Shown: positions 24,486 through 24,641 of the stretch, one piece after another
Position numbering within the stretch: the first letter of the stretch is position 1
Layout of the letters: every line of letters starts with the position of its first letter
Assembly: GCF_003334815.1 (NCBI RefSeq)
Contig: NZ_QOWO01000037.1
Length of the DNA stretch: 37,002 bases
Reading direction: 5' to 3' (one strand)
From: Escherichia coli
GTDB lineage: Bacteria; Pseudomonadota; Gammaproteobacteria; Enterobacterales; Enterobacteriaceae
Program-made: the position numbers and the translations under genes
Notes under the pieces: generated by a model
What the model saw: the letters and a program-made list of their open reading frames with translations, nothing else
The model's database searches: none
Told to the model about the DNA's origin: nothing

Positions 24486-24550
24486 ATTTCCTCCACATGT
24501 TGCCCGGGCAATTCTAGAGTAGCGGGATCAGATGGCAATCGCTTATTGGC

Positions 24551-24572
24551 AAAATGACAATTTTGTCATTTT
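24551..24572. promoter_or_regulatory. CusR box in the cusRS/cusCFBA divergent promoter region
   Basis: Perfect palindrome AAAATGACAA-TT-TTGTCATTTT in the 156-nt divergent intergenic region. Confidence 0.8.
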
Positions 24573-24641
24573 CCTGTCACCGGAAAATCAGAGGCTGGCG
24601 AGTAAAGTTGGCGGCATAAAATCACCAGAAATTATGAGCCT

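Follow-up and report, generated by a model that had tools for sequence, protein, structure and literature searches.

The window analysed here, a stretch of 37,002 nucleotides of Escherichia coli chromosomal DNA (contig NZ_QOWO01000037.1), contained a complete gene set for copper/silver efflux and its regulation. The genes for the OmpR/PhoB-family response regulator CusR (cusR, 23802 to 24485; 227 aa) and the sensor histidine kinase CusS (cusS, 22370 to 23812; 480 aa) were found on the minus strand. The genes on the plus strand encoded the outer membrane channel CusC (24642 to 26021; 459 aa), the periplasmic metallochaperone CusF (26048 to 26380; 110 aa), the periplasmic adaptor CusB (26396 to 27619; 407 aa), and the RND permease CusA (27631 to 30774; 1047 aa). 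All six Cus proteins matched their NCBIfam models end to end and above the curated cut-offs, including CusR, which covered residues 1 to 227 of the 227 in the equivalog model NF007346 with 507.9 bits (cut-off, 420). The six genes were thus intact and full-length, as expected from an earlier note on this DNA, which had described the locus as complete (cusRS plus cusCFBA). The proteins were 98.2 to 100% identical to those of K-12, with CusR identical throughout (100%), and the stretch around residue 51 of CusR, which was taken to hold the phospho-acceptor aspartate, was present. The same gene order (nfrA, nfrB, cusS, cusR, cusC, cusF, cusB, cusA, and pheP) was found in strain 300709, which matched window positions 75 to 36686 at 99.96%.

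The window diverged from strain 300709 at positions 1 to 74 and again after 36686 (36687 to 37002), near the IS150 annotated in that strain (from 36732), and a full-length match to the sok antitoxin RNA was detected near the right end (36606 to 36761). A tRNA-Arg gene (15067 to 15143) was directly followed by envY (15189 to 15950, minus strand). In K-12, the DLP12 prophage, appY, and ompT presumably lie between these two genes; unlike in that map, the tRNA-Arg gene adjoined envY in the window, so the argU site seems to be unoccupied here. The spacer between cusC and cusF (26019 to 26047) measured 26 bp, vs. 157 bp in K-12. The difference corresponded to a 131-bp insertion with an internal inverted repeat at the cusC stop of K-12, which we take to be an ERIC/IRU element and which was absent in the window. 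As a result of this insertion, CusC of K-12 is two residues shorter, whereas CusC of the window ended in WQ.

CusS differed from its K-12 counterpart at residues 121 (R; Q in K-12) and 133 (I; M in K-12), the latter being encoded by ATT at 23414 to 23416 in place of ATG. M133 has been described as an Ag(I) ligand of the auxiliary loop site of CusS, and deletion of the methionine triad has been reported to be compensable "to a large degree". The site that has been found essential and that triggers the conformational change consists of H42, F43, and H176, all of which were intact in the window. A 69-nt cusS segment with I133 was identical in 196 of 4,998 E. coli records, a count that refers to the whole segment and not to the single codon. 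Judging from the intact parts of the system, copper/silver induction is expected to be normal or near-normal despite the presence of I133.

The spacer between the divergent start codons of cusR (24485, minus strand) and cusC (24642, plus strand) comprised 156 bp (24486 to 24641) and contained the inverted repeat AAAATGACAA-TT-TTGTCATTTT at 24551 to 24572. Its arms (24551 to 24560 and 24563 to 24572) were 10 nt each, 2 nt apart, and 100% complementary according to the repeat finder. The complete 22-mer reads AAAATGACAATTTTGTCATTTT and its wider context ttggcAAAATGACAATTTTGTCATTTTcctgtcacc. Since the central TT is not self-complementary, the repeat is of the form 10+2+10 and not a perfect palindrome of 22 bp. 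The earlier note had reported a perfect 10-bp inverted repeat centred in the divergent spacer; the repeat was borne out, and the description of its position was accurate to 2 bp (palindrome centre, 24561.5; spacer midpoint, 24563.5). With up to three mismatches allowed, the pattern AAAATGACAANNTTGTCATTTT matched once in the 37-kb window.

The 22-mer was identical, letter for letter, to the published E. coli CusR box AAAATGACAAnnTTGTCATTTT, which, as quoted in papers citing the original work, is located where the cusRS and cusC(F)BA operons diverge (Yamamoto and Ishihama, 2005). The motif comparison thus upheld the proposal of the earlier note that the palindrome matches the known CusR operator. 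K-12 carries the same 22 bp at the same location between cusR and cusC, in a spacer of the same length (156 bp), together with the identical CusR. Outside the box, the spacer of the window differed from that of K-12 at 24495 (A; G in K-12), 24573 (C; T in K-12), and 24594 (G; C in K-12). Binding and regulation by CusR have been documented in previous studies of K-12. CusR gave a single genomic peak in ChIP-chip, at the cusR/cusC spacer, and this spacer alone was recovered by genomic SELEX with unphosphorylated CusR. CusS has been reported to sense periplasmic Cu(I)/Ag(I) and to phosphorylate CusR, with both operons being switched on when the box is bound, and copper induction has been reported to depend on CusRS.

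The box was highly conserved and, as a rule, present in a single copy in E. coli. A 556-bp query found a match in 5,336 of the 5,426 complete E. coli genomes, in several cases at 100% identity, with annotated cusR and cusC genes flanking the match. The 30-mer at 24543 to 24572, comprising the box and eight left-flanking bases, was found exactly in at least 5,148 of the 5,426 genomes. When the 30-mer included the C of the window at 24573, 3,404 records matched exactly, and 1,832 were one position off, as is K-12. An alignment of six strains showed no variation in the box; three flanking positions differed between the window and K-12. One of these, 24495, was A in the window and G in K-12 and four other strains; it falls within the 5' leader of cusR, beside the Shine-Dalgarno sequence GGAGG and 10 nt ahead of the start codon. 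In a blastn search for the 30-mer holding the box (word size, 11; E-value limit, 10), the median was one place per genome and the maximum two among the 5,426 genomes. One weaker match on a plasmid, the one inspected, was located just upstream of pcoE, a gene reported to be controlled by CusR through TGACAAnnTTGTCAT. These copy numbers, with the inspected plasmid match lying at a CusR target, indicate that the palindrome is not a common word in E. coli; a multi-copy motif was rejected, and the single-copy nature of the site agreed with the reading in the earlier note. In strain 730V1 (E. coli O19:H7), IS903B was inserted in the cusR-cusC spacer (locus 3109 to 4222), just past the equivalent of window position 24594. 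This insertion separates the box and a third half-site, described below, from the putative -10 element of cusC, which lies downstream of it. An ISKpn26 was also present inside cusC of this strain, and the two insertions together amount to a natural knock-out of the pump.

On the cusR side of the box, a promoter was predicted at 24511 to 24538 on the minus strand, with the -35 element TTGCCA (24538 to 24533), a 16-nt spacer, and the -10 element TAGAAT (24516 to 24511). It matched the consensus at 10 of 12 positions and was the sole promoter-like site found by the consensus scan between 24400 and 24720. On the cusC side, a putative -10 element, TAAAGT (24603 to 24608, plus strand), was recognised by comparison with related promoters. 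Ten promoters were aligned on the box in the orientation of the target gene, namely those of E. coli cusC from two strains, three from Providencia, one each from Schmidhempelia and Shimwellia, and those of silC, silE, and pcoE. In all ten, the right-arm TGTCAT was followed at exactly 11 bp by the hexamer TGTCAY (AGTCAC in pcoE), and 22 nt beyond this third half-site came a TAnnnT hexamer. In the window, the third half-site is TGTCAC (24575 to 24580, plus strand), a direct repeat of TGTCAT in the right arm (24564 to 24569) located on the cusC side. Most flanking columns of the alignment showed little conservation. An a.CAG element between the third half-site and the -10 element (24587 to 24591; ATCAG in the window and AACAG in most others) was also conserved in nearly all ten promoters.

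From this register, cusC transcription is inferred to start near 24615. With such a start, the box would be centred near -53.5, and the third half-site would span about -40 to -35. The predicted cusR promoter would give a start near 24504 on the minus strand and a box centre near -57.5 relative to cusR. These values agree with -53.5 and -57.5, which we take to be the positions given for the CusR box in databases.

Box-containing promoters were also found outside E. coli. A scan for the 18-base core in 100,044 genomes, one per species, returned at least 120 loci, a set unfit for counting the cus-linked boxes of Enterobacterales. At least seven of the loci adjoined cusR homologues, including three in Providencia, those in Shimwellia and Schmidhempelia bombi, and that of the representative E. 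coli; the homologues beside the box in Providencia, Shimwellia, and Schmidhempelia were 69 to 87% identical. A further 28 scattered loci among the matches listed are partly due to chance, for which four to five matches were estimated, with more in AT-rich genomes. On plasmids, the boxes read AAAATGACAAcaTTGTCATTat followed by CTGTCAC at silC, AAATGACAAagATGTCATT followed by CTGTCAT at silE, and GTGACAAAATTGTCAT followed by CAGTCAC at pcoE. These copper boxes kept the register of cusC and the TAnnnT -10 element. They differed from the cus boxes in their outer A/T tracts, which were shorter or degenerate, and in their location on mobile elements with regulators of their own, SilRS and PcoRS; SilR is approximately 87% identical to CusR.

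The layout extended to the paralogous regulator HprR (YedW). The HprR box between hprR and hiuH, CATTACAAAATTGTAATG, consisted of the same type of palindrome, third half-site, and TAnnnT element; in the K-12 spacer, TGTAAT was followed 11 bp on by TGTAAG and, after 22 nt, by TATCCT. This was the eleventh promoter with the efflux-side layout, which was thus common to cusC (four genera), silC, silE, pcoE, and hiuH. The half-sites differ between the two boxes, being TTACAA/TTGTAA for HprR and TGACAA/TTGTCA for CusR. The HprR system responds to H2O2/HOCl and acts on hiuH-msrPQ, unlike the copper/silver-responsive CusR system.

Inverted repeats are unusual for OmpR-family regulators, which usually bind tandem direct repeats spaced by one helical turn. 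The named CusR box is inverted, whereas its right arm forms a direct repeat at 11 bp with the third half-site, TGTCATTTTCCTGTCAC; CusR dimers may occupy either pair. The third half-site is a candidate contact of CusR. A tentative proposal, to which we give rather less than even chances, is that the operator of the CusR/SilR/PcoR/HprR clade may be a unit of three half-sites. Activation on the efflux side would come from a pho-box-like tandem, made up of the right arm plus the third half-site and adjoining the -35 of cusC, and the left arm would act on the regulator-side promoter. If true, the proposal would explain both the cross-binding of PhoB and the occurrence of an OmpR-family protein on an apparent inverted repeat. 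The original footprinting work may already include the three-half-site layout.

Several other explanations for the palindrome were weighed. That it is a chance inverted repeat in AT-rich DNA, or an RNA or DNA hairpin without a regulatory role, was considered because the AT-rich spacers are rich in short repeats (the repeat finder listed seven inverted pairs) and because the RNA fold of the region was somewhat better than that of shuffled sequences, if modestly so (z = -2.9). A chance palindrome was ruled out by the shuffles and the cross-genus conservation: none of 100 dinucleotide-preserving shuffles of the window contained a match to AAAATGACAANNTTGTCATTTT, even with three mismatches, and the box was not only exact in thousands of E. 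coli genomes but also kept across genera with randomised flanks. An RNA hairpin or terminator was likewise discarded, given that the scan of the spacer region found no terminator-like site, the fold was modest, a hairpin cannot form with a loop of 2 nt, and both putative transcription starts are downstream of the site. In view of the published CusR binding as well, an origin by chance or as a hairpin is extremely improbable. The operator of a LacI-family repressor, a reading that seems scarcely credible for E. coli, was suggested by the genus Collinsella, in which at least 85 of the loci represented one orthologous site, AAATGACAACGTTGTCATTT, with a partial second copy behind it (e.g., at 7295 to 7330 of one Collinsella locus) and located between a LacI-family gene and an operon for lactose-PTS EIICB and 6-phospho-beta-galactosidase. 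The site has the same 18 specified bases as the CusR box but CG at its centre, whereas the E. coli box has TT. A CG centre is typical of LacI-family operators. To judge from its sequence and context, the Collinsella site is a LacI-type operator in Actinomycetota that would have arisen by convergence, the regulator family being unrelated. The E. coli box has cusR on one side and cusC on the other, and no LacI-family gene was present in its annotated neighbourhood, which, with the known binding of CusR, argues against such a repressor. The shared 18-base core in a LacI-family context implies that the motif identifies CusR only in context.

A further reading, that the site is primarily an operator of PhoB (a pho box) or of HprR and only secondarily one of CusR, is very unlikely, although both proteins, which the earlier note did not mention, do use this DNA. 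The PhoB motif TGTCATTTTyCTGTCACC (24564 to 24581, plus strand) overlaps the right arm. Its K-12 form, TGTCATTTTTCTGTCACC, is the motif assigned to cusR/cusC by PhoB ChIP-seq (Table 1, PMC10294691); the window has TGTCATTTTCCTGTCACC, with C for T at 24573. In that study, the expression value of cusC dropped from 208 to 50 when phoB was mutated, and the enrichment of PhoB at cusR/cusC was low, with a score of 3 against 14 to 20 at phoE and phoA (PMC10294691). PhoB has also been shown to shift DNA of the spacer in vitro. For HprR, the single strongest SELEX peak was located at the cusR/cusC spacer, and HprR and CusR bind each other's boxes. The site resembles a pho box in its TGTCA-type direct repeats 11 bp apart (TGTCAT at 24564 to 24569 and TGTCAC at 24575 to 24580), and the tandem of the right arm and the third half-site fits the PhoB motifs of PMC10294691. 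A canonical pho box stands in for the -35 element, about 10 bp before the -10 element. The tandem pair in the window, in contrast, ended 22 nt before the putative -10 element and would not have this position. The box, moreover, travels with homologues of cusR, silR, and pcoR in other genera and on plasmids, and the copper induction reported in the literature depends on CusRS. PhoB and HprR share the operator with CusR and are not truly competing explanations of it.

The palindrome is thus almost certainly the CusR operator in the divergent cusRS/cusCFBA promoter, which would be bound by phosphorylated CusR to activate both operons and would be shared with HprR and PhoB. The operator is already known, and it was correctly located and interpreted in the earlier note; the finding is at textbook level. 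In the mechanism proposed, periplasmic Cu(I)/Ag(I) would activate the kinase CusS, which would phosphorylate CusR. Phosphorylated CusR would then bind 24551 to 24572, upstream of two back-to-back promoters, and activate transcription of the CusCFBA efflux pump rightwards and of cusRS leftwards, the latter amounting to autoregulation. The same DNA would be available to the paralogous OmpR/PhoB-family regulators HprR, responding to peroxide/HOCl, and PhoB, responding to phosphate starvation. At cusC, RNA polymerase may be contacted by way of a promoter-proximal tandem pair consisting of the right arm plus the third half-site.

The strain carries a standard, intact copper/silver efflux regulon with the canonical operator. 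Transfer of regulons to other organisms by motif needs gene context, because outside Enterobacterales a match to the motif is not by itself diagnostic of CusR. A sharper template for annotating copper/silver promoters and for designing PcusC biosensors may be had by including the third half-site and the -10 element in the register shared by the cus, sil, pco, and hiuH promoters.
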